A stretch of DNA of 64,000 bases from Nitrospinota bacterium (GTDB lineage Bacteria; UBA8248): the NCBI GenBank assembly GCA_026706735.1, contig JAPOYD010000141.1, positions 870-64,869 on the forward strand, read 5' to 3'. A program made the translations under genes and the position numbers. How positions within the stretch are numbered: the first letter of the stretch is position 1; each line of letters opens with the position of its first letter. Positions 1 through 39,814 of this stretch are shown here, one piece after another. A model generated the notes under the pieces. That model did no database searches and was not told the DNA's origin. It saw nothing but the letters and a program-made list of their open reading frames with translations.

Positions 1-1529
1 CCGAGGGCCCCGGAGGCGCAAAGATCGCCCCCTCGGGCGCCGAGGTCGAATGGGTGGAGGAGCCGAGCTATTTCTTTCGCCTGAGCAAGTACGCCGAGCC
101 GCTTCTGGAGCATTACGAGAAAAATCCCAACTTCGTTCAGCCCGAGAGCCGAAGAAACGAGGTGATGAGCTTCGTGCGCAGCGGCCTCAAGGACCTATCG
201 CTTTCGCGCACGAGCTTTCAGTGGGGAATCCCCGTACCGGGGGATGAAAGCCATGTGATCTACGTGTGGTTCGACGCGCTGAGCAACTACCTGACCGCGC
301 CGGGCTTCGATGAGAACGGGGTGCGCGAGGGAAGCCCCTGGCCGACGGATCAGCATTTCATCGGCAAGGACATTCTGAGATTCCACGCGGTCTACTGGCC
401 CGCCTTTCTGCTCTCCGCAGGCGTCCCCCTGCCCGGGCAGGTCTTCAGTCACGGGTGGTGGACGGTCGAGGGCCAGAAGATGTCCAAGAGCCTGGGCAAC
501 GCGGTCGACCCGCACTGGCTCATTGAGGAATACGGCGTCGACGCCATCCGCTATTTCCTGCTCAAGGAGATCCCCTTCGGGCTGGACGGAGATTTCTCGC
601 ATGGCGCACTGATCGACCGCATCAACAGCGATCTGGCGAACGATCTGGGCAACCTGCTCTACCGCACCCTGAACATGGTGAAGCGCTACAGAGAGGGCCG
701 GCTGGAGCGCACGCCCTCGGGCGATTCCGAGGCGGAGAGCGCGTTTTGCGAATTCGTCGCCGATGCGGCCATGAAATACGAGCGCGGCATGTCGGCGACC
801 CACTTCCAGAACGGCCTGAGAGCCGCCTGGGAGGTGATTTCCTGCGCCAACAAATACATCGACTCGAACGCCCCTTGGGCGCTTGCGAAAGAGGGCGAGG
901 AGGACCGCCTTCGTTCGGTGCTCTGGCACGCCGTGGCGGCGATTCGCGTCGTCGCGGCCATGATTTCGCCCGTCATGCCCGCCTCCGCGCAGAAGATAGC
1001 GGCGCAAATCGGGCTGGCCGAGGATTGGGCGAACGCGCCTTATTCGGAATTGATGGACATGCGGAGGCTGCCGGAGGAGCTGGTTACCAGCATCGGCGCT
1101 CCCCTTTTCCCGCGCATCGAGGATGAGGCGAAAGAAGCCATTCAGGAGAAGGTGGCCCGCCGCATCGCCGGTGGTGAAGAGGCCGCGCCTCAAGAGGATG
1201 TGAAAGAAGAGATTTCCTTCGAGGAATTCCAGAAGATGGATTTGCGCGCCGCGCTGGTGCTTGAGGCCGAGCAGATACCTAAGTCGAAGAACCTGCTGAA
1301 GCTCACCGTTTCCCTGGGAGGGGAAACCCGAACCGTCGTAGCGGGTCTGGCGAAACACTACGCGCCCGAGGATTTGGTGGATCGTAAAGTGATACTGGTA
1401 GCCAACCTCGCGCCCGCCAAGCTCATGGGCGTGGAATCCCAGGGCATGGTTCTCGCCGCCGAAGACGGCGAGCATCTCCTGCTCGCGGGCGTGGACGAGA
1501 CGGTAACGCCGGGCGCACCGATTCGGTAG
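1..1529 (+). CDS. metG: methionine--tRNA ligase, 5'-truncated by window edge (C-terminal ~500 aa incl. tRNA-binding domain)
   Basis: Frame of ORF 54..1529 stays open to nt 3. MetRS strings SYFFRLSKY, WFDALSNYLT and the KMSKS loop (GQKMSKSLGN) are present. C-terminal EMAP/Trbp111-like domain (KLTVSLGGETRTVVAG...SQGMVLAA). Confidence 0.93.
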   Translation, partial: EGPGGAKIAPSGAEVEWVEEPSYFFRLSKYAEPLLEHYEKNPNFVQPESRRNEVMSFVRSGLKDLSLSRTSFQWGIPVPGDESHVIYVWFDALSNYLTAPGFDENGVREGSPWPTDQHFIGKDILRFHAVYWPAFLLSAGVPLPGQVFSHGWWTVEGQKMSKSLGNAVDPHWLIEEYGVDAIRYFLLKEIPFGLDGDFSHGALIDRINSDLANDLGNLLYRTLNMVKRYREGRLERTPSGDSEAESAFCEFVADAAMKYERGMSATHFQNGLRAAWEVISCANKYIDSNAPWALAKEGEEDRLRSVLWHAVAAIRVVAAMISPVMPASAQKIAAQIGLAEDWANAPYSELMDMRRLPEELVTSIGAPLFPRIEDEAKEAIQEKVARRIAGGEEAAPQEDVKEEISFEEFQKMDLRAALVLEAEQIPKSKNLLKLTVSLGGETRTVVAGLAKHYAPEDLVDRKVILVANLAPAKLMGVESQGMVLAAEDGEHLLLAGVDETVTPGAPIR

Positions 1530-1567
1530 CGGCAAGACGACCCGCCCGGGAGATTGGAGTCACTGGA

Positions 1568-3298
1568 GTGAACGAATCTATGGAATCCGGACCGGATTCA
1601 TCCGGCGATAAGGACTCATTCGCGGGTAAGGACAGAAAGGGACGCTCCCAGCGCCGCAGAAGAAGGCGTGGCCGAAGGGGCGGAAAACGTCCGGAACACA
1701 AGGAACGTCAGAATACACTCGGGAAAGCCGAACCCGCCGCGCAGGCGCAAAACGGGGAGAAAGCCGCCCAGCGCCCTGAAAACGGAGGCGCGCGCGATAG
1801 CGATTCCCGGCGCAGGCGAGGCGCGCGCAAGGGGAGGAACCGCTCGCGCGGGGAGCGGAGGCAACGGCCCAAACCCCAGGTCATCATCGCCGATCTGCCC
1901 GATACGAACGGCCTGCCCGTTCTGGTGGACACCCACGCCCATCTCATCGACAAGGCGTTCGACCCGGACCGCCAGGGGGCGGTGGAGCGCGCCATCGAGG
2001 AGGGGGTGCACTACATCATATCGATGGGCACCTGTCTGGAGTCGAGCCGCCGGACCCTCGACCTTGCGGCGTCCTACGCCGGCGTCTACGCGGCGGTCGG
2101 CGTTCATCCGAGCGACGTCAAGGACGTGAACGAGCGAACCATCAGGGATATCGCCAGGCTCGCTGAGGAACCCAAGGCGGTTGCCGTCGGCGAGATCGGG
2201 CTGGATTACTACCGCGAAGGCGTCCCGCGCAAGACCCAGCGCAAGTGGTTCCGGGAGCAGATCAGGCTGGCCGTCGAGGTGGGCAAGCCCATCGTCGTCC
2301 ATTGCCGCGAATCGGCGGATGACATCTATGAGATATTGGAGGAAGAAAGGGCGTGGCGCGCGGGCGGGGTCATCCACTGCTTCACGGGCGACGAAGCGCA
2401 GGCCCGCAAATTCCTGGACATCGATTTTCATCTCGGCGCGGGCGGGGCCATCACCTTTTCGCGCTCCGAAGAACTCCGCGAAGTCTTCGAACGGGTTCCC
2501 ATCGAGCGCGTGCTGCTCGAGACGGACAGCCCCTATCTCGCCCCGCCGCCCCACCGGGGCAAGCGGAACGAACCGGCCTACGTCGCGCGCGTGGCGGAGA
2601 CTTTGGCCGAGCTTCACGGGATGACGACGGAGGAGGTGACGCGCCTCACAACGGAGAACGTGCGCCGGCTGTTCGGCGTGGGGCCGGAGCATGAGGAGGG
2701 GAGCGTCGCCTACTCGATCGGCGACACGCTCTACCTCAACATTACGAACGATTGCCAGAATTCGTGTTTTTTCTGCGGTCTTCTGAGCGACTGCGTCTAC
2801 AAGGGCCACAACCTGAAACTCGCGCAAGAACCCGACGCGGCGGAGGTGCTCGCCGCCGCCGGCGACCCGTCGCGCTACGAGGAAGTCGTCTTCAGCGGAT
2901 TCGGCGAGCCGACGCTCCGCCTCGACGTGGTGAAGGAGGTGGCCGGCGAACTCAAGCGCCGCGGCGCCAGGCGCATCCGCCTGGTGACGAACGGGCTCGC
3001 GAACAAGACGCACGAGAGAAACATTCTGCCCGAGCTGGGCGGCCTCGTGGACGCGGTATCCATCAGCATGCAGGCGGAAAGCCCGGAAGCCTATGCGAAA
3101 GTCTGCAAGACCAGGGACATCGAAGAACCCTACCCGCTGGTCAAGGAATTCGTGAGGTGGTCCAAGAACTACATCCCCGAAGTCGAGGTGACGGCCGTGC
3201 GCATGTCCGGCCTCATCGACATCGAGGCGTGCGAGAAGGTGGCGACCGAGGAGTTGGGCGTGCCCTTCCGCGCGCACGATTATGTAAGGATGGATTAG
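1568..3298 (+). CDS. TatD-family metal-dependent hydrolase fused to a TatD-associated radical SAM domain; Arg/Lys-rich N-terminal extension
   Basis: TatD motifs VDTHAHL, GVHPSD, GEIGLDY, VVHCRES, ETDSPYL. These are followed by the CxxxCxxC cluster motif NDCQNSCFFC and GFGEPTL. The first ~115 aa are RRRRRRGRRGG-type low complexity. An in-frame GTG at 1925 is an alternative start. Confidence 0.8.
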   Translation: MNESMESGPDSSGDKDSFAGKDRKGRSQRRRRRRGRRGGKRPEHKERQNTLGKAEPAAQAQNGEKAAQRPENGGARDSDSRRRRGARKGRNRSRGERRQRPKPQVIIADLPDTNGLPVLVDTHAHLIDKAFDPDRQGAVERAIEEGVHYIISMGTCLESSRRTLDLAASYAGVYAAVGVHPSDVKDVNERTIRDIARLAEEPKAVAVGEIGLDYYREGVPRKTQRKWFREQIRLAVEVGKPIVVHCRESADDIYEILEEERAWRAGGVIHCFTGDEAQARKFLDIDFHLGAGGAITFSRSEELREVFERVPIERVLLETDSPYLAPPPHRGKRNEPAYVARVAETLAELHGMTTEEVTRLTTENVRRLFGVGPEHEEGSVAYSIGDTLYLNITNDCQNSCFFCGLLSDCVYKGHNLKLAQEPDAAEVLAAAGDPSRYEEVVFSGFGEPTLRLDVVKEVAGELKRRGARRIRLVTNGLANKTHERNILPELGGLVDAVSISMQAESPEAYAKVCKTRDIEEPYPLVKEFVRWSKNYIPEVEVTAVRMSGLIDIEACEKVATEELGVPFRAHDYVRMD

Positions 3299-3386
3299 CC
3301 GGAGCGGGCGAATTCGATTCCTTCGGGGTATCCACCCCATCGCCCGCAAACATGAAACGAGCGCGAAAGGCGTAATCATAGGAATC

Positions 3387-3530
3387 GTAGGGACAACCCC
3401 CTGTGGTTGTCCCTCTTCAGGACAGGCACGGGGGCCTGTCCCTACGGCGAACACTTTTGTAGGGGTCGCATATATGCGACCCGTGTTGCGTCGGCGAAAA
3501 AACGAGGGACGCATATATGCGTCCCCTACA
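3387..3530. repeat. cluster of four REP-like GC hairpins (GTAGGGACA... family and GGGTCGCATATATGCGACCC type)
   Basis: GGGACAACC-n6-GGTTGTCCC, GGACAGGC-n6-GCCTGTCC, and perfect palindromes GGGTCGCATATATGCGACCC and GGGACGCATATATGCGTCCC. Related copies occur elsewhere in the window. Confidence 0.85.
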
Positions 3531-3582
3531 CTTATGTCGACGCGAACGACGACCTGTCACGCAGGCCACCCATGCGAGTCGG

Positions 3583-3620
3583 CAGATACAACCCCGCCCC
3601 GTTTGCGCTAGAATACCCCC
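3583..3620 (+). promoter_or_regulatory. conserved 38-nt promoter-like module, copy 1 (contains TAGAAT box 3609-3614)
   Basis: 32/38 nt identical to 5159-5196. TAGAAT lies 6 nt upstream of an ATG at 3621. Confidence 0.4.
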
Positions 3621-3704
3621 ATGACTAACCGGCATTTCTCGAACAATTTTATCAATCCACCTGAACGAAACCCGCATACCATCCCAAGGAACGCCCCCCG
3701 ATGA
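3621..3704 (+). CDS. possible 27-codon upstream ORF, stop overlaps patatin start (ATGA)
   Basis: The ATG is 6 nt after the TAGAAT box, the same geometry as lhr. Its TGA at 3702-3704 overlaps ATG 3701. No homology is recognisable. Confidence 0.2.
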   Translation: MTNRHFSNNFINPPERNPHTIPRNAPR

Positions 3705-4633
3705 GCAGGCCCTTCTACATCCTCTCGCTCGACGGCGGGGGGTCGCTCGGGGTCTACACGCTGGGCGTGCTGGCGGAAATCGAGCGCACCCTGGGACGTC
3801 CCCTGCACGAGGCCTTCGACCTCGCCTACGGCGTCAGCACGGGCTCCATCATCGCCACGATGATTGCGCTGGGCGATGAGGTCGACCCGACGATTGCGGA
3901 ACGCTATTTCGAACTTGCGCCCGACGTACTGGGGCCTTTGCTCGCGCGCCACAAGACGAACGCGCTCAAGCGGCATTCGGAGAGAATCTATGGCGAGAGG
4001 ACTTTCGAGGATTTCAAGCTGGACGTCGGAATCCTCGTTACCCATGAGGAATACGACCGCCCCATGGTGTTCAAGCGCACCATCAACCAATCTGGTGGCG
4101 GCCCCGATAGTTTTCTCTCCGGCGAGGGCCTGAAAATATCGGATGCGATCATGGCGTCTTGCGCCGCGCATCCGTTCCTGAAGCAAAAGCGCATCGCCAC
4201 GACCCTTATCGAGGAGCGCACAGCACTGGACGGCGGATTCGTGTCGAACAACCCCACCCTTTTCGCCATCGCGGACGCCACCGGGCCGCTCGGCGTCGCC
4301 CGGGAGGATATCCGGATACTGAGCGTCGGGACGGGGAGTTACCCCGAATCGAGGAAGTGGACGCGGCGAATCATCGCAGGGATAAGACCCCTCAAGACCT
4401 ACATGACGCTATCGAGAACGAGTTCGAACAGCGTCGATACGCTGCGCGATTTGTTCTTTCCGGACGTCCGAACCCTGCGCATCAACGACTCGTTCACAGA
4501 CCGCGCCTATGAGACGGATTTCATGGAGCACGACCCGCGCAAGCTCAAGGCCATATTCGGGCTCGGGCGCAAATCCTTCGAGCGTGCGGAGGCGCAAGTG
4601 CGGGAATTTTTCCGGGATGCGGGTGGAGGGTAA
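3701..4633 (+). CDS. patatin-like phospholipase
   Basis: Oxyanion motif LDGGGSLG, nucleophile elbow GVSTG (GxSxG) and catalytic Asp in LDGGFVSNNP (DGG). AAGGA lies 10 nt upstream of the ATG. Confidence 0.85.
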   Translation: MSRPFYILSLDGGGSLGVYTLGVLAEIERTLGRPLHEAFDLAYGVSTGSIIATMIALGDEVDPTIAERYFELAPDVLGPLLARHKTNALKRHSERIYGERTFEDFKLDVGILVTHEEYDRPMVFKRTINQSGGGPDSFLSGEGLKISDAIMASCAAHPFLKQKRIATTLIEERTALDGGFVSNNPTLFAIADATGPLGVAREDIRILSVGTGSYPESRKWTRRIIAGIRPLKTYMTLSRTSSNSVDTLRDLFFPDVRTLRINDSFTDRAYETDFMEHDPRKLKAIFGLGRKSFERAEAQVREFFRDAGGG

Positions 4634-4774
4634 GGGGTGAGGTTTTGATTTTGTAGGGGAGGACCTGTGTCTCCTCCCTTTTTGTTTACCGTCCTGATTG
4701 CATTTCATCTCTGGTTGCGGGCGGAGGCGCAGGTCCGCCCCTGCAAAATCTCGCTGTTCTCCATACCGTTTGTG

Positions 4775-4852
4775 GTAGGGACAACCCTCTGTGGTTGTCC
4801 TGCCCCCCGTGGTTGTCCCCTCGTCAGGACAGGCGCGGGGGCCTGTCCCTAC
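4775..4852. repeat. REP-like hairpin cluster (GTAGGGACAACC...GGTTGTCC; GGACAGGCGCGGGGGCCTGTCCCTAC)
   Basis: Near-duplicate of 3387-3445 and 11743-11795. Confidence 0.85.
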
Positions 4853-4890
4853 GGGCCTCCGAATCCCTCATGGGCCGGATTGTAGATTAT

Positions 4891-5035
4891 CGTCATTCCG
4901 GCGTATGCCGGAATCCAGGGGTCTTGTCTTTTGTCTTTCATCTTTGCTCGTCGCGCTTTATGAATGTGAGGGAATAGGACGCCGCATATCTTCCTCCTCC
5001 CCGGTTCTGGATTCCGGCGTTCGCCGGAATGACGG
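4891..5035. repeat. MITE-like element, family 1 (TIRs CGTCATTCCGGCGnnnGCCGGAATCCAG / CTGGATTCCGGCnnnCGCCGGAATGACG)
   Basis: Left arm 4891-4918, right arm 5007-5035. Each arm is itself a palindrome. About 10 related copies occur in the window. Confidence 0.85.
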
Positions 5036-5088
5036 TGATTCGTATCCGTGGGGCATTCCCGACCAAGAAGTTGCGGATTTATTTCGTG

Positions 5089-5116
5089 GTAGGGACAGGT
5101 TGCGACCTGTCCCTAC
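5089..5116. repeat. REP palindrome GTAGGGACAGGTTGCGACCTGTCCCTAC
   Basis: 28-nt near-perfect palindrome. Perfect copies lie at 49433-49460 and 52385-52412. Confidence 0.9.
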
Positions 5117-5158
5117 GAAACTCACCCCCGACCCAGAGAAAAACACATATTTGAGGCA

Positions 5159-5196
5159 CAGATTCCATCCCGCTCCGTTTGGGGTAGAATACCCCC
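5159..5196 (+). promoter_or_regulatory. conserved 38-nt promoter-like module, copy 2 (TAGAAT 5185-5190)
   Basis: 32/38 nt identical to 3583-3620. TAGAAT ends 9 nt before the lhr ATG (5200) and no SD is visible, so the mRNA may be leaderless or have a very short leader. Confidence 0.4.
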
Positions 5197-5199
5197 GCT

Positions 5200-8100
5200 A
5201 TGGACAGACACTCCTTTCATCCGCTGATTGCGCGCTGGTTCCGTGAGAAATTCGCGGAGCCGAGCGCTCCCCAGGAGGCCGGCTGGCCCGAGATAGCCAC
5301 CGGGCGCGACACGCTCATCGCGGCCCCCACGGGCACGGGCAAGACGCTGGCCGCCTTCTTGTGGTCGCTCGACGGACTGATTCGGGACGCGCTCGCGGGC
5401 GAACTCGAAGACGCCTGCCGCCTCGTCTACATCTCCCCCTTGAAGGCGCTCGGCAACGACATCCAGAAGAACCTGCAGGAGCCTTTGAGCGAGATCCGCG
5501 CGCTCGCCAGGAAAGAGGGCGTGGAGTTGCCTGAGATTCGCGTGGCGGTGCGTTCCGGCGACACGCCCGCGCGCGAGCGCAGACTCATGCTCAAAAAACG
5601 CCCCCACATCCTCATCACCACGCCCGAGTCGCTCTATATCCTCCTGACGGCCGAGCGCAGCCGAAAAGTATTGGAGACCGCGCGCGCCGTCATCGTGGAC
5701 GAGATTCATGCGGTCGCGGGCGATAAGCGCGGCGCGCACCTGGCGCTCTCACTGGAGCGTCTGGACGCCCTTTGCGGTACGCGGCTCCAGCGCATCGGCC
5801 TGAGCGCCACGCAAAAGCCGATCGACGAGATAGCCCGCCTGCTCATCGGCGCAGGCAGGAGCGGGGAGGACGGCGCTCCCGATTGCGCGGTCGTGGACGT
5901 GGGACACAAGCGCGAGATGGCGCTGTCCATAGAGGTGGCCGATCAGGATATCGGCCCCATCGCCTCGCACGAGTACTGGGCAGAGGTGTTCGACCGCATC
6001 ACCGCCCACATCGAAAGCCACCGCACGACCATCGTGTTCGTCCACACGAGGCGGCTGGCGGAGCGCGTCGCCCACCGGCTCACGGAGAGGCTCGGCGAGG
6101 GCCGCGTGGCCGCGCACCACGGGTCGTTATCGCGCAAGATCAGGCTGGACGCCGAGGAGCGGCTGAAATCGGGCGCGCTGTCCGCCATCGTCGCCACGGC
6201 GTCTTTGGAGCTTGGCATCGACATCGGCCACGTCGATCTGGTCTGCCACCTGGGCGCGCCGAGAACGCTCGCCTCCCTGCTGCAGCGCGTGGGGCGCTCC
6301 GGACACTGGAAGGGCGCGGTGCCTAAGGGAATCGTCTTTCCCTTAACAAGGGACGAACTGCTGCAGAGCGCCGCTGCGATTCGCTCGGTGCGGGGAGGCG
6401 CGCTCGACCGCGTCATCTTCCCCGAAGCGCCGCTCGACATCCTGGCCCAGCAGATGGTGGCCGAGGCCGCGGCGCAAGAGGAAGTGGGAGAAGAGGCGCT
6501 CTGGTCGCTCGTCCGGCGGGCGCAGCCTTACGGGGCGCTTGCGCCGGACGTTTTCGAGGACGTGCTCGAAATGCTGTCCGAGGGAATCTCGACCAGCCGG
6601 GGCAGGCGCACCGCCTATCTGCACCGGGACCGCGTGAACGCCCTTTTGAGGCCGAGGCGCGGGGCGCGGCTGTGCGCCATCACGTCGGGCGGCGCGATTC
6701 CCGACACGGCGGATTACGACGTGGTGGAAGGCGCTGCGGAGACCTTCGTGGGCAAGGTGAACGAGGATTTCGCTATCGAGTCGAACGCGGGCGACATCTT
6801 CCTGCTCGGCAACCACTCCTGGCGCGTGAAGCGCGTGGAGCGCGACAAGGTGCGCGTGGAAGACGCCGAGGGCCTTCCGCCGAACATCCCCTTCTGGCTG
6901 GGCGAGGCGCCCTCGCGCACGGCGGAACTCTCGGAATCCGTCTCAGCACTCCGGGCCGAACTGGCGGGGCGTCTCGATGCGCCCGCCGAGGCGATCCGCT
7001 GGATGCGCGCCGAATGCGGGCTTTGCGTCTCGGGCGCGTCGCAGCTTCTCGATTACGTGCGCGAGACCGTGCGGGTGCTGGGGCGCGTCCCCACGCAGGA
7101 AGAGATCGTGGCGGAGCGGTTCTTCGACGAGGCGGGCGGGATGCAGCTCGTCATCCACTCGCCCTTCGGGGGCCGGATCAACCGCGCGTGGGGCCATACG
7201 CTCAGGAAGCGCTTTTGCCTCACGTTCGATTTCGAACTCCAGGCCGCCGCGACGGACGACGGCATCGTGCTCTCGCTCTCCTCGCAGCACAGCTTTCCGC
7301 TCGAATCGATATTCGGCTTCGCGCGCCTCGCATCACTGAAAAAGGACATGCTCCAGTCCGCCCTGCAATCTCCCATGTTCACCAACCGCTGGCGCTGGAA
7401 CGCGGCGCGCGCACTCGCGCTCCCCCGGCACAGCGGGGGCAAGAAGGTCCCGGTCGCGATACAGCGCATGCGGGCCGAGGATTTGCTCGCCGCCGTCTTC
7501 CCGGCCCAGCTCGCCTGCCAGGACAACCACCACGGTCCCATCGAGCCGCCCGACCATCCCCTCGTGAACGAGACGGTGGAGAACTGCCTGACGGAGGCGA
7601 TGGACATCGAGAGTCTCAAGGCGCTCATCGCTGACGTCGAGAGCGGTAAGATCAGGACCTATGGCGTGGAGACGCCCGCGCCTTCGCCCATGTCGCACGA
7701 AATACTGAACGCGAACCCCTACGCCTTCATCGACGACGCGCCGCTGGAAGAGCGCCGCTCGCGCGCCGTGCCGCTCCGGCGCGCCCTGCCCGATGACGCG
7801 GAGAGCGCCCGGCTGGATCCGGACGTCATCGAGGAGGTTTGCGAGCAGGCTTGGCCGGCGCCGCGCGACGCGGACGAGCTGCATGACGCGCTGCTCTCCC
7901 TGTGCGTACTGCCGGCGGAGGAAGTCGATGAATGGTCCGCCTGGGTGGAGGAACTCCTCGCGCAGAATCGGGTGGCGAAAGCGGTCTGGGGGTTGGACGG
8001 CATTGAGCGGGGAGGCTGGGTTCCCGCGGAGAGGATGGCGCTGATGCGCGCGGCGATTCCGGGAATCAGACTCATGCCCGAGGCGATTCCCTTCCAGGGG

Positions 8101-9525
8101 GATGACGCGGTGCCGCCCGCGCAGGATGAAGCTGTTCTCGCCATCGTCCGGGGATGGATGGAGGCGTCTGGCCCCGTAACGGCGGGCGAACTCGCCGCCA
8201 AAGTCGGCCTCGCGGGATCGGACGTTCAGATCGCCCTGGCCGCTCTGGAGGGAGAGGGAGCGGTCCTGCGGGGCTGCTTCGCCCGACTCTCGGCAGAGGC
8301 GGAAGTCGAGTGGTGCGACCGCGTGTTGTTGGCCCGCATCCACCGCATGACGCTCGGCAAGCTGAGGCGCGAAATAGAACCCGTGACGGCGGCGGATTTC
8401 GTCCGCTATCTGCTCAGGTGGCAGCACGTGCACGAGGACGCCATGCTGCACGGGCGCGACGGCGTGCTGGAGGTGATCCGCCAGCTTCAGGGGCTGGAGT
8501 TGCCGGCGCCCGCCTGGGAGGAGCAGATTCTCCCGGCGCGCATCAAGAACTACGACCCCGCGGATCTCGAGGCGCTTTGCCTCTCGGGCCTGGTTGCCTG
8601 GGGACGCCTGCGACCCGGCGCTCCGCCGGAGCCGTTTGATATTTCGGAGAGTGGCAGCCGATCCAGAGGAACCCAGAAGGCGCAGCCCACGCGCCGTGCG
8701 CTCCTGGCCTTCTTGATGCGAGAGGATACGGGGCTGTTCCTGAAGCCCAGGGAGGCGGAGGACGCGTGGCGTGGCAACCTGTCGAGACCCGCACTCGAAA
8801 TACTCGATTTTCTTAAAAGCAAGGGAGCGTCCTTCCTCGCCGACATCACGGCGGCGACGGGGAGGCTCAGGACCGAAGCCGAGGAGGCGCTTTGGGAACT
8901 CGTTGCGCGCGGTCTCGTGACGGGCGACGGCGTGGCGGGTTTGAGAGCCCTGATAGTGGGCGCGAACGAGAAGAAAAAGGGCGAGCGGCGGCTGCGCGCC
9001 CTGCCGGGGGGCAGGGCCATATCGCGCGAGGCGAAAAAGCGCTTCATGCCCGTGGGCCGCTGGTCGCTCTGGGGAGGCGCCGACGCCCCGCTCGACGCGG
9101 AAGCGGTGCGCGAGGCTTATGCGCGGCAACTGCTGAAACGCTACGGCGTCGTGCTCCGGGAGCTGGCCTCCCGCGAGGCCACTGCTCCGCGCTGGCGTGA
9201 GCTGGCGGGGGTGTTCAGACGCCTGGAAGCCAAGGGCGAGATTCGCGGCGGGCGTTTCGTCTCGGGCTTCATGGGCGAGCAGTTCGCCCTGCCCGAGGCG
9301 GTGGAGGCGCTGCGCGCCGTCCGCAGGATTCCGGCGCGGGGCAGGCCCACCATCGTCCATGCGAGCGACCCGATGAATTTAATGGGTATCGTTACTCCAG
9401 GACCTAAAGTTTCGGCACGGTCGCGCGACGTCATCCTCTACCGCGACGGTCTCGTGGCCGACAGCGGCCCGCTCGGCGAGGTGCGGAGCCGGATGCGGAA
9501 CGAGTCGCTGACGGGCGGGGGATAG
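5200..9525 (+). CDS. lhr: Lhr-family large ATP-dependent DEAD/DExH helicase
   Basis: 1441 aa. Walker A APTGTGKT, DExH box VDEIH and SAT-like GLSATQ, followed by the Lhr-type DEAD/H-associated region and a long C-terminal extension. Confidence 0.9.
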   Translation: MDRHSFHPLIARWFREKFAEPSAPQEAGWPEIATGRDTLIAAPTGTGKTLAAFLWSLDGLIRDALAGELEDACRLVYISPLKALGNDIQKNLQEPLSEIRALARKEGVELPEIRVAVRSGDTPARERRLMLKKRPHILITTPESLYILLTAERSRKVLETARAVIVDEIHAVAGDKRGAHLALSLERLDALCGTRLQRIGLSATQKPIDEIARLLIGAGRSGEDGAPDCAVVDVGHKREMALSIEVADQDIGPIASHEYWAEVFDRITAHIESHRTTIVFVHTRRLAERVAHRLTERLGEGRVAAHHGSLSRKIRLDAEERLKSGALSAIVATASLELGIDIGHVDLVCHLGAPRTLASLLQRVGRSGHWKGAVPKGIVFPLTRDELLQSAAAIRSVRGGALDRVIFPEAPLDILAQQMVAEAAAQEEVGEEALWSLVRRAQPYGALAPDVFEDVLEMLSEGISTSRGRRTAYLHRDRVNALLRPRRGARLCAITSGGAIPDTADYDVVEGAAETFVGKVNEDFAIESNAGDIFLLGNHSWRVKRVERDKVRVEDAEGLPPNIPFWLGEAPSRTAELSESVSALRAELAGRLDAPAEAIRWMRAECGLCVSGASQLLDYVRETVRVLGRVPTQEEIVAERFFDEAGGMQLVIHSPFGGRINRAWGHTLRKRFCLTFDFELQAAATDDGIVLSLSSQHSFPLESIFGFARLASLKKDMLQSALQSPMFTNRWRWNAARALALPRHSGGKKVPVAIQRMRAEDLLAAVFPAQLACQDNHHGPIEPPDHPLVNETVENCLTEAMDIESLKALIADVESGKIRTYGVETPAPSPMSHEILNANPYAFIDDAPLEERRSRAVPLRRALPDDAESARLDPDVIEEVCEQAWPAPRDADELHDALLSLCVLPAEEVDEWSAWVEELLAQNRVAKAVWGLDGIERGGWVPAERMALMRAAIPGIRLMPEAIPFQGDDAVPPAQDEAVLAIVRGWMEASGPVTAGELAAKVGLAGSDVQIALAALEGEGAVLRGCFARLSAEAEVEWCDRVLLARIHRMTLGKLRREIEPVTAADFVRYLLRWQHVHEDAMLHGRDGVLEVIRQLQGLELPAPAWEEQILPARIKNYDPADLEALCLSGLVAWGRLRPGAPPEPFDISESGSRSRGTQKAQPTRRALLAFLMREDTGLFLKPREAEDAWRGNLSRPALEILDFLKSKGASFLADITAATGRLRTEAEEALWELVARGLVTGDGVAGLRALIVGANEKKKGERRLRALPGGRAISREAKKRFMPVGRWSLWGGADAPLDAEAVREAYARQLLKRYGVVLRELASREATAPRWRELAGVFRRLEAKGEIRGGRFVSGFMGEQFALPEAVEALRAVRRIPARGRPTIVHASDPMNLMGIVTPGPKVSARSRDVILYRDGLVADSGPLGEVRSRMRNESLTGGG

Positions 9526-9605
9526 GGAGCCGATAATTCGCAAATGCTAAACTGTGTGTTCAACACTACATAAAATCCCTGAATCTTATCCCTCCGCTGC
9601 CACAA

Positions 9606-9634
9606 TTGAATTTCCCACGTGAGAAAGCTATAAA
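9606..9634 (+). promoter_or_regulatory. sigma-70-like promoter TTGAAT-17nt-TATAAA for the island gene
   Basis: TTGAAT 9606-9611, 17-nt spacer, TATAAA 9629-9634. GGAAG lies 8 nt before ATG 9688. Confidence 0.5.
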
Positions 9635-9687
9635 TTGAGCTTGAGAAAAGAAGAGCAAACTTCTCTCCGCTACTGGAAGTTACACAA

Positions 9688-10866
9688 ATGCCGAGACAGG
9701 AAACTATATATTCGATTTTTGTTGCTTCACCCAGCGACATTCAAGAAGAGCGATCTCGCATTCAGGCGATTGTAAACGAGTGGAATTCAAGTCAACCGCA
9801 ACAAAGCGGAATTCGGCTTGATTTGGTTGGATGGGAAACACATGCATATCCTGGAATTTCTGATGATCCACAAGCAGTCATCAATAATCAGGTCCCGGAT
9901 GACTACGATATATTTGTCGGGATTATGTGGCACCGTTTTGGAACGCCAACGAAACGCGCAGAATCGGGAACTATTGAAGAGTTTCAAAGAGCAAAAGAAA
10001 GATACGACATAAATTCTTCTAGTGTGAAAATCATGTTTTATTTTAAGGAAGCCTTTGTTTCACCATATGAGCTCGATCTGGAGCAATTCCAAAATGTCAA
10101 AAATTTTCGCGACTCTTTGAAGACTCAAGGTGTTTATTATGGAACATTTAGTGATGCGGATAATTTTGAGAATCTTTTTCGAATGCACATCAATCGTCAA
10201 GTTCACGAATTAAATCAAGAAATCGTATCTCCGTCGTTAGAAGAGCCAGATCCTCAAAGAGATGAGGCAGTTGCTGAGCCTAGTGTCGTAGATGAAGATA
10301 TGGGGCTTTTGGAGCTTGAGGAATCGTTTGAGGAAAAATTTCTGAAGCTCAACGAAATTTCAAACCGAATATCAGATCACATTAGAGAGTTAGGTGAACA
10401 GGTATCTGATCGCACTGATGAAATAAACCAGTTGGTGGAGCAATTTGGTGGTAACCCGAATCGAAATTCAGTTAAGCGCTTACTCACAAAGACTGCGGGA
10501 AATATGGACGAATTTGTTGTACGCATGGAAGCGGAACTTCCAATCTTTGGTTCGAGCTTTGATGACGGAATGGAAGTATTGATTCGCGCCACGCAAATAT
10601 CACACGAATTTGGCATGGGTAGCGAGGATGAGTTTCGTAAAATTTTAGAGGCGATTAACACTCTTCGCGAGACAACGCTCGAAGTTGACGAACAGATGGT
10701 GGCTCTTAGGTCGAGTATCGTAGATATACCACCAATCACCACCAAGTTAAAGAAATCCAGAGCAGCAGCTACGAGAGTCCTCGACCAATTTATTGAGAAA
10801 CTTAAAGGTGTTGAAAATTTGACACGTGAAGCAGAGAGCATCATTGGAGAGACTCTCCAGAATTAG
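9688..10866 (+). CDS. orphan protein: DUF4062/TIR-like N-terminal domain + acidic linker + unrecognised helical C-terminal domain (low-GC island)
   Basis: The N-terminal pattern IFVASPSDIQEER...WETHAYPG...VINNQVPDYDIFVGIMWHRFGT...SGTIEEFQRA...KIMFYFK resembles DUF4062 as I recall it. The gene is much more AT-rich than its flanks. Confidence 0.5.
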   Translation: MPRQETIYSIFVASPSDIQEERSRIQAIVNEWNSSQPQQSGIRLDLVGWETHAYPGISDDPQAVINNQVPDDYDIFVGIMWHRFGTPTKRAESGTIEEFQRAKERYDINSSSVKIMFYFKEAFVSPYELDLEQFQNVKNFRDSLKTQGVYYGTFSDADNFENLFRMHINRQVHELNQEIVSPSLEEPDPQRDEAVAEPSVVDEDMGLLELEESFEEKFLKLNEISNRISDHIRELGEQVSDRTDEINQLVEQFGGNPNRNSVKRLLTKTAGNMDEFVVRMEAELPIFGSSFDDGMEVLIRATQISHEFGMGSEDEFRKILEAINTLRETTLEVDEQMVALRSSIVDIPPITTKLKKSRAAATRVLDQFIEKLKGVENLTREAESIIGETLQN

Positions 10867-10961
10867 CTATGGGCAACACAATTTGTTAGTTTAATGTAAG
10901 ATAATCGCCACCTTACGAGATTTTCGTTATCCCGGAGATATGCTCCCTGCTTTGCAACAAG

Positions 10962-10986
10962 AAAACCCCGGCTTGTTCCGCCGGGG
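10962..10986 (-). terminator. intrinsic terminator of the cytochrome c gene
   Basis: Stem CCCCGGC / GCCGGGG (10966-10972 / 10980-10986) followed on the minus strand by a U-run (TTTTCTTGTT). Confidence 0.6.
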
Positions 10987-11010
10987 CTTCCCTGTATCTC
11001 TTATGCGTCG

Positions 11011-11547
11011 TTATCTTTTCTTCTTCTTCCGGAACGACTTGTGGCATGCGCCGCATTGCCTGCCGATGAGTCCCACCGCCTTCTTGATGGCCCCAGGCCC
11101 GCCCTTGTAGTGGATTTGCGCGAGGGCGGCGGCGTTCGCGGCCAGACCGTCCGCGATGAGGTTGAATTTCCCCTTGTCCTTCCAGATGGCGGCGGTCGAA
11201 GTCGTCTTGCCGGCCAGGGTGTTCTTCTGGAACGCCTTTTTGATCTTCGAAGCCTTCTTGTACATGTCGCCCGCGGCCTGGCGCACCTGCTCCTGGACCA
11301 CCCAGCCGCTGCCTTGTTTCATCGCGGTTCTCAAGCGCTTCATGTCGGCGCCGATGCCGCGCATGAGCTTCCTGCGCGCCTTCACCGCCGCCTCATCGCC
11401 CTTCATCATCTTTTTCTTGCCCATCATCTTCTTGTCTTTCATGGCCATCATCTTCTTGTCCATCATCCCTTCGCCCGCGCAGCCGGCGACGAGCGCGCCC
11501 GCCATCATCAGGACGGCCAGGGTGATGAATACGTCTCGTTTTTTCAT
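11011..11547 (-). CDS. class II cytochrome c (cytochrome c'/c556-like) lipoprotein with Met/Lys-rich insert
   Basis: Lipobox LVAGC after an N-terminal signal, a single C-terminal CxxCH (CGACH) and a helical body. KKMM-type low complexity at aa 27-50. Confidence 0.6.
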   Translation of the reverse strand: MKKRDVFITLAVLMMAGALVAGCAGEGMMDKKMMAMKDKKMMGKKKMMKGDEAAVKARRKLMRGIGADMKRLRTAMKQGSGWVVQEQVRQAAGDMYKKASKIKKAFQKNTLAGKTTSTAAIWKDKGKFNLIADGLAANAAALAQIHYKGGPGAIKKAVGLIGRQCGACHKSFRKKKKR

Positions 11548-11742
11548 GACCGGATTTCCCCCACTGAATCAGAAACGAAAAAGACAAACAGGCGGATCTG
11601 CATGAAACCCTTTTTAGCCTGAAAACGAATCATGGGCGGTGGTCTGCTCCACTTCACTGCGTATGACCGCATGTTAGCCCAAAAGAGACCCGGCGGCCAG
11701 TCCCCGGAAATGGGGGGAGTGAATTCACAATCTGGCGATTTC

Positions 11743-11795
11743 GTAGGGACAACCCCCTGTGGTTGTCCTGCCCCCGTGGTTGTCCTGACGGGGGA
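11743..11795. repeat. REP-like hairpins (GTAGGGACAACCCCCTGTGGTTGTCC...)
   Basis: Near-identical to 3387-3413 and 4775-4830. Confidence 0.85.
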
Positions 11796-11824
11796 TTCCT
11801 TCCAATTCAAGTCGAGATTACTCG

Positions 11825-11855
11825 CCGTCATTCCGGCGCATGCCGGAATGACGAT
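11825..11855. repeat. solo family-1 palindrome CGTCATTCCGGCGCATGCCGGAATGACG
   Basis: Collapsed single-hairpin version of the family-1 TIR. Confidence 0.85.
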
Positions 11856-11883
11856 CAAAAGCGAATTCACACGTAGCAGGGCG

Positions 11884-11910
11884 TCGAACTTCCCGAAGAG
11901 GGGAGTTCGA
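11884..11910. repeat. family-3 palindrome TCGAACTTCCCGAAGAGGGGAGTTCGA
   Basis: Same motif as the three copies at 34764-35159. Confidence 0.7.
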
Positions 11911-12152
11911 CCTGTGGCTGCGTTTCACAGGGACAGGGCTACAAATCCTGTATGGATTGCGCCTTTATCCCCACAACCCCCCGACAGCGTTGATCCCGAA
12001 GGCCATTTGTGGAACCTTGGGATATCCCGAAGGGTGAGAGGCGTCTTGCTTACAATTCCGGCGAAGGCCGGTCGGCATCCTGATTTCATTGCCCGGGTCG
12101 CGCGGCCCGAACCGTTTCCGGGCGGGCGGCCCCATTAACGAAAGGAGCTAAC

Positions 12153-12446
12153 ATGAGCGCATACGTGGTCGGTCACATCACCGTCAAGGACGAAGAGGGA
12201 TTCAACAACTACGCCGAGCAGGGACTCGCCATCGTCGCCTCCGTCGGGGGCGAGGTGGCGGCGAGCGGACAACTCGTAAAAGTCCTCACCGGCGAGCACG
12301 ACAGGCAGATGTTCGTCCTTCTCAAGTTCCCCGACCAGGAGGCGGTGGAGAGTTGGTATTACTCGGACGGCTACCAGGCCCTGATCCCCGGCCGCAACGA
12401 GGCGGTGGACATCACGTTCATCTCCTATGACGAGCCGGAGGAGTAG
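12153..12446 (+). CDS. DUF1330 domain protein
   Basis: 97 aa. The pattern MSAYVVGHITVKD...KFPDQEAVESWYYSDGYQAL is typical of DUF1330. AGGAG lies upstream. Confidence 0.7.
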   Translation: MSAYVVGHITVKDEEGFNNYAEQGLAIVASVGGEVAASGQLVKVLTGEHDRQMFVLLKFPDQEAVESWYYSDGYQALIPGRNEAVDITFISYDEPEE

Positions 12447-12571
12447 GCGTTCACCGGGAGAGCGGGCGCGGGCCGAAACGCCTCCGCCCGTTCTTCTGAT
12501 CCAGCCGCGAATGCGCACCCCCTGCGCCGCAGTCATGAGGATTTCCGCTTGCAGAACGAAGGACGAAAAGC

Positions 12572-13204
12572 ATGAAGCGCCTCTACCCCGACCTTTCGCA
12601 GACGGCCGAGCAGAAGCAGTTCGGCGTCCTGACCGTTCACGCCTATCTGCTCGAACGACAGGGGGGAAACGTCCTCTTCTACAACCCGAGGAGCGCCGCC
12701 GATTTCGATGAGATCGACTCTCTGGGCGGAATCGCGCATCACTGCCTGAGCCATTGCCACGAGGTGGACGAGTCGCTCGCAGACGTGGCCGGACGTTTCG
12801 GCTCCAGATTATGCTGCCACGCGCTCGTTGCGCCCTATCTGCCCGAGGCGGTTTCGGCCGACGTTTTTTTCGGCTCTCCCCCGCGCGAGTTTCTGGGCGG
12901 CGACATAGAGGTGATCCATACGCCGGGCCACACGGACAACAGCGTCTGCTACCGCTACCGCTCGCCCCACGGCAAGACGTATCTCTTCACCGGAGACGCG
13001 ATCTATCTCGACGGCGGGGAGTGGAAGACCATCGTCGTCGCCGACGACGGGGGCGACGAGGCGGAACTGGCGAGAAGTCTCGCCGTTCTCAGAGACCTCG
13101 AAGTGGACGTCGTGATCTGCAGCGTCTCTGTAGGCGAGATGCGAATCGTGGAAGTCACGCCCGACGCGTGGCGGAGCATTATCGACGGGCTGGTGGAGGA
13201 ATAG
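12572..13204 (+). CDS. MBL-fold metallo-hydrolase
   Basis: HxHxD-like SHCHEVDE, plus HTPGHTDNS and FTGDAIY motifs. Confidence 0.7.
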   Translation: MKRLYPDLSQTAEQKQFGVLTVHAYLLERQGGNVLFYNPRSAADFDEIDSLGGIAHHCLSHCHEVDESLADVAGRFGSRLCCHALVAPYLPEAVSADVFFGSPPREFLGGDIEVIHTPGHTDNSVCYRYRSPHGKTYLFTGDAIYLDGGEWKTIVVADDGGDEAELARSLAVLRDLEVDVVICSVSVGEMRIVEVTPDAWRSIIDGLVEE

Positions 13205-14226: not shown

Positions 14227-14315
14227 TTTTGTTTGTCGTCTTTTTGTCTTTGCTTTTTGTTTTTCCATTCAACCGGTGAGAACATAAAAGGCCGGATCGC
14301 CATGATCCTCGTCGG

Positions 14316-14346
14316 CTCTGGATTCCGGCATTCGCCGGAATGACGG
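14316..14346. repeat. family-1 MITE right arm only (CTCTGGATTCCGGCATTCGCCGGAATGACGG)
   Basis: Preceded by the element-internal motif TCGTCGGCTCTGG, as in copies at 47905 and 49560. The left arm is absent. Confidence 0.8.
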
Positions 14347-14409
14347 CAATTCCTCCCACTTCGGGGGCTTTTTCAACAACCCCATCATGGTGAGGCGGGT
14401 TATCCCGGC

Positions 14410-16252: not shown

Positions 16253-16505
16253 GGGCTGTTGAAAAAGTTCTCCTCGCGCGGTATTCACCACCGCCGTCAT
16301 TCCGGCGAAAGCCGGAATCCAGAGCAGACGGGGACACCGAATCGCAGGACGACCAGGCAAAACGATAAAGCGAAAAGATAAATACAAAAGCAAAGTCCCT
16401 GGATTCCGGCATGCGCCGGAATGACGATCAAAAGCGCATTCACATCTTGGAAAAGTCGCGACCTGTCCCTACAGCTCACATATTCAGGACTTTTTCAACA
16501 ACCCC
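16253..16505. repeat. composite mosaic element: outer inverted TTGAAAAAG/CTTTTTCAA motifs enclosing a full family-1 MITE (16295-16426) and a half REP
   Basis: GGGGCTGTTGAAAAAGTTCTCC ... CGTCATTCCGGCGAAAGCCGGAATCCAG ... CCTGGATTCCGGCATGCGCCGGAATGACG ... CGCGACCTGTCCCTACAG ... CAGGACTTTTTCAACAACCCC. Confidence 0.8.
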
Positions 16506-22751: not shown

Positions 22752-22791
22752 ATACACGGAAATCCTTCGTTCGCGGAAGGTGGCCTTTGCT

Positions 22792-22930
22792 CGTCATTCC
22801 GGCGCATGCCGGAATCCAGAACCAGTGAGAAGGGTAAATTACGGCGTTCCATTTCCTCGTTCATTCGCCCGGAACGACGGCCAAAGAGCAAAAAGCAAAG
22901 TCCCTGGATTCCGGCATGCGCCGGAATGAC
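22792..22930. repeat. family-1 MITE-like element, full copy
   Basis: Left arm 22792-22819, right arm 22902-22930. The internal AAAGCAAAGTCCCTGG is shared with copy 16295-16426. Confidence 0.85.
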
Positions 22931-23053
22931 GAGTATAGGCGAAAGGGGGCGGGGGTCGAACGCCTTGCGCCGGAACGCCCGTTTGACCCTCCCTCCTCGG
23001 TCGGGCCAAACCTTCGATACGCGGCTTCGCCGCTATTCAGGATGAGGCGGAGA

Positions 23054-27929: not shown

Positions 27930-28046
27930 CATTCGCGCATAAACAAGGAGTCGAGAATTCGGGTAGTGTTTCGCCCGGAACATGGCTCTATAGGTCAAGG
28001 TGTATGGATGAAATAGCAGCATTTTTCAACTGATAAGGAGGAAGTG

Positions 28047-28349
28047 ATGGCAAAGGTCAAAACCAGGATACAGCCTCTGCAGGATCGCATTTTGGTGAGA
28101 CGTCTGGATGCGGAAGAGGAGCAGATCGGCGGGATCATCATTCCTGATTCCGCGAAAGAAAAACCTCAGGAGGGGGAAGTGATCGCCGTAGGACCCGGCA
28201 AAGTCACTGATGATGGGAAAAGACAGGCGCCCGAGGTGGGCGAGGGCGACAAAATTCTTTTCGCCAAATATGCGGGCACCGAGGTGAAGTCCGAGGGCGA
28301 AGAGTTTCTGATCATGCGCGAAGATGATGTGCTGGCGATCATCAACTAG
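28047..28349 (+). CDS. groES: co-chaperonin GroES
   Basis: IQPLQDRILVRR...GGIIIPDSAKEKPQEGEVIAVGPG. AAGGAGG lies upstream and a GTG at 28044 is an alternative start. Confidence 0.93.
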   Translation: MAKVKTRIQPLQDRILVRRLDAEEEQIGGIIIPDSAKEKPQEGEVIAVGPGKVTDDGKRQAPEVGEGDKILFAKYAGTEVKSEGEEFLIMREDDVLAIIN

Positions 28350-29915
<1,566 letters not shown>

Positions 29916-30032
29916 GCTGAAGTCGGGCGGCTACATCGTCATCAACCACACGGAGGCGCTCGTATGCCTCCGGGCGGAATGCCTCCAGGTGGTATGGGCG
30001 GCATGATGTAAGTCGTCGTCTTGAAGTTCGAA

Positions 30033-30060
30033 GGGGGCCTCTCGGAGGCCCCCTTTTTTT
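30033..30060 (+). terminator. intrinsic terminator of groESL
   Basis: GGGGGCCT-CTCGG-AGGCCCCC followed by TTTTTTT. It lies after the TAA at 30009-30011. Confidence 0.85.
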
Positions 30061-30202
30061 GTTTAGATTCCCTTGCGGGTGTCTTGAAGAGAAGCAACTC
30101 GTCTCATAAGATTAAGCATGGGGAGTTTTTGACGACTCATTCCGCTGATTTGCCTTCTCGCACGCATTCAAGCGATGATAGATATTGAGCGGAGAGTGAT
30201 AC

Positions 30203-31900: not shown

Positions 31901-31941
31901 GCCGGGGGCGTCGTTTCCGAATTTTGGGCTGATATATTTGG

Positions 31942-31970
31942 TTGACACCTGCAAGTGCTGATTTTAGGAT
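31942..31970 (+). promoter_or_regulatory. sigma-70-like promoter TTGACA-17nt-TAGGAT
   Basis: TTGACA 31942-31947, TAGGAT 31965-31970, 40 nt upstream of the TTG start of the regulator. Confidence 0.5.
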
Positions 31971-32010
31971 GATTTTTTCTGCGATTCCCTGTTAATCAGA
32001 GGATTACCCT

Positions 32011-32682: not shown

Positions 32683-32922
32683 TACCGCCATTTTTCCATT
32701 CCAATCCGTTTCTCGTTTCGTGGTTCTTCCTGCATAAAGTATAATTTTGCATCTTTTTGAAATTTCTATTGGGTCAGGGGGCCGTAGATTTCACGGTTGA
32801 ATTTAATCGAGGTGTCATCCAACAAGGCTTTGCCGCTTGATCTGAGAAGAAAAATCAATTCAGGAACTATTCGGAAGAATACGCTATCGTTGAATTGTTG
32901 AGCCATTTCATTAGGAGAAGAC

Positions 32923-35170: not shown

Positions 35171-35228
35171 GCGCTTCTTCGAGCTCGTCATCATGCAGGT
35201 GAGATTCCCGCCATTCCGTTTAGGTTGT

Positions 35229-35365
35229 CGTCATTCCGGCGCATGCCGGAATCCAGAACCGATGAGGTAGACGTTTTACGGCATTTCAATTCTCTTTGAT
35301 GAAACCGGAATACAACCGGAAAACGAAAGGCGAAACCCTGGATTCCGGCATACGCCGGAATGACG
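35229..35365. repeat. family-1 MITE-like element, full copy
   Basis: Arms at 35229-35256 and 35337-35365. Confidence 0.85.
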
Positions 35366-35459
35366 GCGATGGTGAAATCTTAGCCAGAAGGGGTTTTTCA
35401 ACAACCCCTCAAGGGAGGGGGAGTAATTCCGAATATGTCTCGATTTGGTTCGCAGGTTC

Positions 35460-39801: not shown

Positions 39802-39814
39802 GTTCGTTTTTGCT

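Follow-up and report, generated by a model that had tools for sequence, protein, structure and literature searches.

A low-G+C one-gene cassette in a Nitrospinota genome encodes a DUF4062 protein with a predicted four-helix-bundle auxiliary domain and is a candidate abortive-infection module

We analyzed a 64,000-nucleotide stretch of DNA from a Nitrospinota bacterium (contig JAPOYD010000141.1, assembly GCA_026706735.1; hereafter the window, whose coordinates are used throughout) and focused on an interval low in guanine plus cytosine (G+C) between the helicase gene lhr and a cytochrome c′ gene. The interval holds a single intact, ATG-initiated open reading frame (ORF) of 392 amino acids (9688–10866, + strand), in which an N-terminal DUF4062 domain is joined by an acidic linker to a predicted four-helix bundle. 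We favor, with a probability of roughly 65%, the reading that this gene is a self-contained, horizontally acquired one-gene immune module, in which a DUF4062 enzyme that hydrolyzes nicotinamide adenine dinucleotide (NAD+; NADase) would be regulated by the bundle and would act by abortive infection.

Two recent studies frame this reading. Osinski et al. (bioRxiv 10.64898/2026.05.01.722283) described DUF4062 as a TIR-like NADase, distantly related to the TIR family and to that of the nucleoside 2-deoxyribosyltransferases (NDT), and placed about 20% of bacterial DUF4062 genes within defense islands. Their single-gene Klebsiella system, Swarozyc (KpSwz), requires both its catalytic residue E97 and its auxiliary domain. 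KpSwz forms autoinhibited oligomers that are activated when the phage portal binds the helix-turn-helix (HTH)/winged auxiliary domain, and the activated protein depletes NAD+ and brings about abortive infection. Ibarra-Chavez et al. (bioRxiv 10.64898/2026.06.25.731849) described Evangelion, a plasmid-borne defense family in which a single gene has a DUF4062 core and a diversified auxiliary region, and distinguished the family lineages Eva01–04, Swarozyc and TEP1-like. Eva01, like KpSwz, depletes NAD+ in abortive infection, and its F11, E87, W162 and auxiliary region are all essential.

The N-terminal half of the window protein is recognized by two profiles. Residues 10–102 match PF13271 (DUF4062) at E 9.6e-8 and 32.6 bits, above the gathering score (24.7), and residues 7–180 match positions 4–175 of the PADLOC profile PDC-S60 at E 7.8e-57. 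NCBIfam returned no match for the protein, and the TIR-family profiles (PF01582, PF13676 and PF10137; TIR, TIR_2 and TIR-like) gave no Pfam match at E up to 1. On these profile matches we assign the N-terminal half to the DUF4062 superfamily. A search with the full protein returned 841 homologues. Because the best 120 of the 841, from Thermodesulfobacteriota, Planctomycetota, Halomonas and many metagenomes, are nearly all ~390–400 amino acids long and cover 98–100% of the query (at 40–46% identity), the two-domain architecture is that of a conserved family.

Across 100 full-length homologues, F11, S14, P15, D17, E21, R22, N33, L46, W49, P55, Q62, N66, D74, G78, W81, G85, T88, R90, G94, T95, E97, E98, F99, Y118, F119, F140, G148, G206 and P348 are invariant, and conservation of E50 is 90% or higher. 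The catalytic-glutamate motif of the family (acidic-S-[YG]-T ... E-[YF]) reads E92-S-G-T-I-E97-E98-F99 in the window protein. In a second alignment, which set the N-domain beside E. coli, Salmonella, Enterococcus and Rhizobium DUF4062 proteins, five distant proteins in all, P15, D17, N33, P55, Q62, N66, G85, S93, G94, T95, E98 and G148 are unchanged. E98 is therefore the candidate catalytic glutamate, since it is invariant across distant DUF4062 lineages; equating E97 of the window protein with E97 of KpSwz by number was rejected because E98, in this alignment, is the universally conserved glutamate. F11, W49-E50/Q62 and E98-F99 correspond to residues essential in Eva01 (F11, E87) and KpSwz (E97).

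In an AlphaFold 2 (AF2) model with a mean predicted local distance difference test score (pLDDT) of 79, residues 6–154 form five strands (6–13, 42–46, 75–80, 114–120 and 150–154) that alternate with helices, and a further helix (157–179) leaves the domain. Two low-confidence loops (50–67 and 85–93) may be counterparts of the regulatory loops that surround the active site in TIR domains. Foldseek comparison of the model with PDB and BFVD gave nothing at E 1e-3, only generic flavodoxin-like, GTPase and NDT folds, and PDB sequence searches, run with the protein and again with a profile of 100 sequences, found no DUF4062 structure.

The linker that follows comprises 26 residues with a mean column conservation of 0.24 (Table 1). 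Beyond it, four helices are predicted with pLDDT ~90 (207–252, 259–307, 313–345 and 352–391), with no β element. The bundle carries the motifs G-L-L-[DE]-L at its start, E-L-P-x-F (283–287) and, in a loop, P-x-x-T-x-x-L-[NK]-x-x-[KR] (348–359). It is acidic (net charge −13); the C-domain has no transmembrane segment, and the protein as a whole lacks a hydrophobic segment (maximum Kyte-Doolittle mean over 19 residues, 0.61). We found no significant match for the C-domain in Pfam, NCBIfam or PADLOC, and it does not resemble in sequence the auxiliary regions carried by DUF4062 proteins of E. coli (282 amino acids), Enterococcus (333 amino acids) and Rhizobium (345 amino acids). PDB sequence searches with it returned only designed helical bundles (WA20/SUWA), which we rejected as homologues because the match reflects helix composition. 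Auxiliary domains were annotated with Pfam only by Osinski et al. (10.64898/2026.05.01.722283), so a domain without a Pfam model would go unnamed there. Judged by these searches, the bundle is a previously undescribed domain and the new part of the protein. The preliminary description of the locus, drawn from the letters of the window, had proposed a DUF4062/TIR-like N-domain, an acidic linker and a helical C-domain without recognizable motif, and each of these parts was recovered.

The bundle also occurs apart from DUF4062. A C-domain-only profile, searched against 1.84 billion cluster representatives (50% identity), matched 1738 clusters at an E of 1e-3 or less (988 at 1e-10 or less), most of which share the DUF4062-plus-bundle architecture. 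In three proteins (P0180, P0268 and P0269; 38–42% mutual identity; no PADLOC match), however, the acidic linker and the same bundle follow a PIN_8 (PF18476) nuclease, and the motifs G-[FL]-L-E-L and P-R-[IL]-T-K-x-L-N-x-A-K are kept. P0163 (734 amino acids) joins the bundle to an unannotated N-terminal region of ~540 amino acids (no Pfam or PADLOC match), which may be a third effector for this module. Further domains precede DUF4062 and the bundle in P0172 (734 amino acids; a HIRAN/PDC-M03B-like domain, PADLOC PDC-M03B, E 1e-51) and in P0248 and P0266 (an XRE-type HTH). Column conservation is 0.76 in the effector half of the family and 0.47–0.67 in the bundle helices, of which helix 3 is the most variable, a difference that supports an effector-plus-sensor pattern. 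Because effectors are swapped on a constant C-domain and the effector half is the more conserved, the bundle appears to be an exchangeable regulatory or sensor module. Whether it deserves to be called a new, widespread and effector-agnostic immune sensor or switch, one that serves two or more unrelated effectors (the DUF4062 NADase, the PIN_8 nuclease and perhaps the ~540-residue region of P0163), responds to a trigger unlike that of Swarozyc (the portal) or Eva01 (recombination intermediates) and marks a distinct and probably very abundant environmental defense family, is a more tentative proposal that we place slightly below even odds. Since most other PIN_8 proteins (~460 amino acids; ~60% query coverage in most matches) end in other C-terminal domains, PIN_8 too is a modular family of effectors.

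Comparison with known systems locates the window protein among them. Like Swarozyc, it is the product of a single gene with an N-terminal DUF4062 domain, a candidate catalytic glutamate in an SGT...E motif and a patchy, horizontally transferred distribution; the helix leaving the domain (157–179) has its counterpart in the KpSwz ‘stalk’, and both proteins end in an auxiliary domain, which in KpSwz is required. An E. coli DUF4062 protein of general Swarozyc type is 32% identical over residues 1–162. By contrast, the KpSwz auxiliary domain is an HTH/winged fold whose β-hairpin anchor binds the phage portal, whereas the window protein has a disordered acidic linker and a predicted all-α bundle of ~185 amino acids with no BLASTP similarity (E > 10) to the enterobacterial DUF4062 auxiliary region, KpSwz itself being compared by description. 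Because the auxiliary domains are unlike, the trigger probably differs from that of KpSwz. The window protein resembles Evangelion in that a single polypeptide combines a DUF4062 core with an auxiliary region particular to its lineage and needs no obligatory partner gene; the two also share F11, W-E and E-[YF] motifs at matching positions, and the proposed outcome of NAD+ depletion and abortive infection. The auxiliary region of Eva01, however, is short (lost on truncation at L177), and Eva01 is enriched on resistance plasmids of Staphylococcus and Enterococcus, whereas the window architecture is on no PLSDB plasmid; an Enterococcus DUF4062 protein is 30% identical in the N-domain only (residues 10–174).

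The window protein matches the PADLOC candidate system PDC-S60 (PDLC05050) more strongly than the E. coli, Enterococcus and Rhizobium DUF4062 proteins do, over the N-terminal 175 profile positions, but this profile has 906 positions with no match past 175, and the 392-residue window protein carries an unrelated C-domain. Canonical TIR NADases (Thoeris ThsB, TIR-STING, TIR-SAVED and SARM1-like) would share with it a glutamate-dependent NAD+ glycohydrolase activity, a flavodoxin-like α/β fold and a logic of oligomerization-gated NAD+ depletion, yet the window gene has no Pfam TIR match, no TIR among its 50 best Foldseek matches and no partner effector or sensor gene. The three PIN_8 proteins have the same linker and bundle and differ in their effector, a PIN-like nuclease rather than an NADase. 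By architecture, then, we count the window protein among the single-gene DUF4062 systems that are ‘Evangelion-like’ in a broad sense; its different auxiliary domain sets it apart from the Swarozyc, Eva01 and PDC-S60 types.

In the mechanism we propose, the DUF4062 domain would be a TIR-like NAD+ glycohydrolase with E98 as its probable catalytic residue, tethered through the flexible acidic linker to the soluble four-helix bundle. The bundle would most likely hold the enzyme inactive until it sensed an infection-derived cue, such as a phage protein or a replication intermediate. Recognition of the cue would re-arrange or oligomerize the DUF4062 domains, NAD+ would be hydrolyzed via E98, and the outcome would be abortive infection. 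We infer the NADase chemistry, the abortive infection and the activation through the auxiliary domain from the published relatives.

Base composition sets the gene apart from its surroundings. In 200-nucleotide windows, G+C is 34–46% over ~9500–11000, against 60–73% in the upstream and 61–63% in the downstream flank, and all remaining 1-kb bins of the window are at 47.7% or more. The same AT bias recurs in the family: the gene is below its flanks in G+C at 27 of 28 family loci (mean −9.5 points), the bias thus being common to the family and not particular to the window, which shows the largest deficit of the 28 (−20 points). Across these loci gene G+C follows that of the hosts (36–66% G+C; r 0.84, slope 0.71). 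A milder dip (48–58%) lies at 28000–33000; a second island there was rejected, the genes being housekeeping ones (for a Cpn60/TCP-1 chaperonin, a TonB-C protein and a FeoA-domain regulator of the DtxR family).

The junction between lhr and the cytochrome c′ gene in related genomes bears on how the gene came to lie there. A search with the Lhr C-terminus retrieved ~18 species-level relatives at 74–91% identity, several of their records titled Nitrospinota or Nitrospinaceae metagenome-assembled genomes. In 12 of these related Nitrospinota species the cytochrome c′ gene directly follows lhr across a gap of 130–845 bp (52–60% G+C), and no DUF4062 gene was found in these gaps. The sole part of 9526–11010 that aligns to the 12 gaps is the cytochrome c′ terminator, from 10956 on (76–84%). 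For this reason we delimit the inserted cassette to ~9526–10955, ~1.43 kb that would hold a single gene between a promoter region and a short 3′ tail; the terminator hairpin marks, by this alignment, the right-hand limit of the insertion and may also end transcription of the inserted gene. The gaps of relatives without the island are filled by GC-rich repeats resembling repetitive extragenic palindromes or miniature inverted-repeat transposable elements (REP/MITE-like), which makes the insertion site an intergenic hotspot rich in repeats and variable in length. In the window these intergenic repeats consist of ~30–40-nucleotide units, 88–100% identical and often in inverted pairs, that translate as ‘...IPAHAGMT...’.

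A metagenome contig (L002) carries the cassette at the same site, collinear over 9566–13196 of the window. The flank of this contig is 95.9% identical to the species representative L014 and 92.1% identical to L005, both of which lack the gene; the flank of the window is nearest to L007 and L006 (~87%), and both again lack it. The gene is therefore present in two non-sister lineages, each with closer relatives that do not have it. We rejected a core-gene reading, to which the syntenic copy might point, because L014 and 11 other species are without the gene; the absence from a near-conspecific of L002 in particular makes it accessory. The two syntenic proteins are 64.5% identical with a synonymous divergence (dS) of 0.83, against 81–92% identity and dS 0.23–0.45 for the neighboring genes, so that dS of the gene is two to three times that of its flanks. 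Moreover, the L002 allele is nearer to the allele of an unrelated, integrase-bearing island (L001; dS 0.42) than to that of the window. The raised synonymous divergence suggests that one allele has replaced another at a fixed site; alternatively, synonymous change may run faster in an AT-rich gene when the genome around it is GC-rich. On the simplest reading of these patterns, the cassette is accessory: it would pass between related genomes when their conserved flanks recombine, and trade alleles with a wider mobile pool. The ratio of nonsynonymous to synonymous divergence (dN/dS) between the window and L002 copies is 0.28 and therefore indicates purifying selection on the gene. From the junctions and the composition together, we conclude that the gene is horizontally acquired and accessory.

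No vehicle for this movement is evident beside the gene: there is no adjoining integrase, no tRNA anywhere in the 64-kb window, no Rfam match in 9300–12200 and no convincing flanking direct or inverted repeat. An 11-nucleotide TTGAATTTCCC pair at 9606 and 11162 was rejected as a terminal repeat, being within chance expectation. The 120 nucleotides upstream of the gene are ~75% conserved with L002, the sole syntenic relative; with the L001 copy, conservation is limited to the final ~60 nucleotides before the gene, and no flanks are shared beyond these. The preliminary description had called the locus a horizontally acquired single-gene island of low G+C without mobility marks, and had named the comparison of this junction among relatives as a way to tell it from a core gene; all of this agrees with what we found. 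It had also credited the island with its own promoter. The TTGAAT-17-TATAAA sequence is there, but a consensus scan gave three promoter-like sites against 2.6 ± 1.7 in shuffled sequence, and since this is no excess we grade the promoter as plausible only.

Table 1. Features of the insertion and its surroundings (window coordinates).
Feature	Position	Strand or orientation	Basis or remark
lhr, 1441-aa Lhr helicase	5200–9525		upstream of island; Pfam DEAD, Helicase_C, DEAD_assoc, WH_Lhr, WH3/WH4_Lhr
Cassette 5′ part	9526–9687	+	candidate promoter and ribosome-binding site; no counterpart in lhr/cytochrome c′ gaps of 12 relatives
Candidate promoter	TTGAAT 9606–9611, 17-nt spacer, TATAAA 9629–9634	+	sequence read
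Putative ribosome-binding site GGAAG	9675–9679	+	8 nt 5′ of ATG
DUF4062 (putative TIR-like NADase) domain, aa 1–180	9688–10227	+	PF13271, PDC-S60, AF2 model
Candidate catalytic Glu E98 codon, SGT-I-E-E-F motif	9979–9981	+	alignment
Acidic disordered linker, aa 181–206	10228–10305	+	pLDDT < 40, net charge −8
Predicted four-helix-bundle auxiliary domain, aa 207–392, and stop codon	10306–10866	+	AF2 pLDDT ~90
Cassette 3′ untranslated end	10867–10955	+	low G+C; not alignable to relatives’ lhr/cytochrome c′ gaps
Cytochrome c′ intrinsic terminator hairpin, host sequence	10956–11010	−	CCCCGGC 10966–10972 / GCCGGGG 10980–10986
Cytochrome c′ gene	11011–11547	convergent with island ORF	PF01322
REP/MITE-like repeats	~4891–5035, 11616–11908, 14306–14347, 16293–16438, 22784–22931, 35228–35372, 39809–39957, 47802–47946, 49503–49605		also in lhr/cytochrome c′ gaps of L005–L022

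Elsewhere in the family, no neighbor or partner gene is conserved across 35 full-length loci, so the gene stands alone; together with the occurrence of the C-domain on PIN_8 proteins, this fits the one-gene sensor/effector that had been proposed at the outset. The L001 copy, the nearest non-syntenic homologue (63% identity), lies in an integrase-bounded island beside guaA (1–12800 of that contig) with a Shedu-like SduA_C protein, an HNH protein, a resolvase, a replicase/PriCT protein and a type I restriction-modification (R-M) methylase (HsdM), which by its gene content is a typical defense island. Another locus (L039) holds a type I R-M system with an embedded AAA_15/21 ATPase, plus a PIN gene, and the Halomonas neighbors include DUF4747 and DUF3800. 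Among 144 neighboring ORFs from 26 metagenome loci, PADLOC identified components of type I, II and IV R-M systems, SoFic, PDC-S02/S04 and Schlafen-like proteins; many housekeeping genes are found there as well, and toxin-antitoxin (TA) genes (ParE, PIN) lie close by in some relatives. The defense-type neighborhoods, and the HIRAN fusion of P0172, count in favor of the immune reading. Among 50,697 records from phages and 72,556 from plasmids, not one encodes the full-length architecture: none of the 169 PLSDB plasmid matches covers at least 80% of the query, and one IMG/VR contig matches the N-domain only. Two DUF4062 genes of other build lie in mobile settings. The 282-amino-acid protein of E. 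coli NZ_CP103739.1 (L033, 5785–6633) is encoded in a tRNA-Leu integrative island, adjoining a recombinase and an RNA-directed DNA polymerase, and a homologue in Salmonella NZ_LN868944.1 (L030, 5986–6558), truncated by an IS3 element, lies just past the terminase, where the morphogenesis block of an HK97-type prophage or satellite ends.

Several observations weigh against the immune reading. Defense evidence comes from DUF4062 lineages other than the one with the four-helix bundle (KpSwz, Eva01), and Eva02, a further DUF4062 lineage, gave no protection in published assays (10.64898/2026.06.25.731849). No TIR structure is among the top 50 Foldseek matches, and the TIR-likeness is drawn from the Pfam assignment and the literature. 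C-domain identity across phyla, at 33–46%, is above what would be expected of a module in a tight arms race, and the sensor role of the bundle, proposed by analogy, could be that of a scaffold only. Finally, the gene lies in housekeeping surroundings, not in a defense island, both in the window and at L037.

This solitary setting would also suit a non-immune accessory gene, such as a mobile element's addiction or toxin module, or else a stress-linked NAD regulator, that landed in the repeat-rich hotspot and was kept by chance, as would the TA genes near some relatives and the fact that a function for the DUF4062-plus-bundle lineage is drawn from kin and not from experiment. We consider it unlikely: the ORF is intact and under purifying selection, the catalytic residues are invariant in the 100 homologues, this very large family occurs across many phyla, the 35 loci share no antitoxin-like partner, and related one-gene DUF4062 proteins are anti-phage in experiments. 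The distant relationship of DUF4062 to TIR and NDT enzymes raises a different alternative, in which the domain would generate a signal, either a ThsB-like messenger derived from adenosine diphosphate (ADP)-ribose for a distant effector or a product of NDT-like nucleotide or nucleoside processing. An NDT stands at rank 23 of the BFVD Foldseek list (E 0.15), and activation of Eva01 disturbed several adenine metabolites, not NAD+ alone (10.64898/2026.06.25.731849). However, a messenger for a distant effector sits poorly with the lack of any partner gene conserved beside the 35 family members, and KpSwz and TEP1 yielded ADP-ribose and nicotinamide only, with no cyclic or isomeric products (10.64898/2026.05.01.722283); signal generation is accordingly distinctly improbable.

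The shape of the C-domain invites one more explanation, namely that the protein has two effectors and that the bundle is a second, membrane-directed executioner like the MLKL/HeLo/RPW8-type or plant coiled-coil (CC)-type bundles. Beyond the predicted fold itself, faint Pfam matches to helical-bundle families (RPW8 at E 0.28, Mce-type and others) and a weak Foldseek match to an α-pore-forming toxin component (7a0g, E 0.14) point this way, but the RPW8, Mce-type and 7a0g matches are all far below significance. A strongly acidic bundle with no hydrophobic stretch is ill suited to membrane attack, and its presence on an independent effector, PIN_8, is the behavior of a regulator or sensor. We therefore regard membrane killing as very improbable and retain the DUF4062 NADase regulated by its bundle as the favored reading.

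DUF4062 has been known as an immune NADase only since 2026, and the enterobacterial and Gram-positive plasmid lineages alone have been tested. The gene described here belongs to a far larger environmental lineage that extends through Nitrospinota, Thermodesulfobacteriota, Halomonas, Planctomycetota and gut metagenomes. Its locus offers a clean natural case of a candidate defense gene that some closely related, uncultured kin of marine nitrite oxidizers carry at one intergenic site and others lack there, without an integrase. Diversified auxiliary domains on DUF4062 are what a specialist would expect; the size of the lineage and the sharing of one bundle between a putative NADase and a PIN nuclease are the concrete lead. 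Wired to both effectors, the bundle is a good candidate for a portable infection sensor, and the identity of its trigger would widen the known cues for NAD+-depleting immunity.

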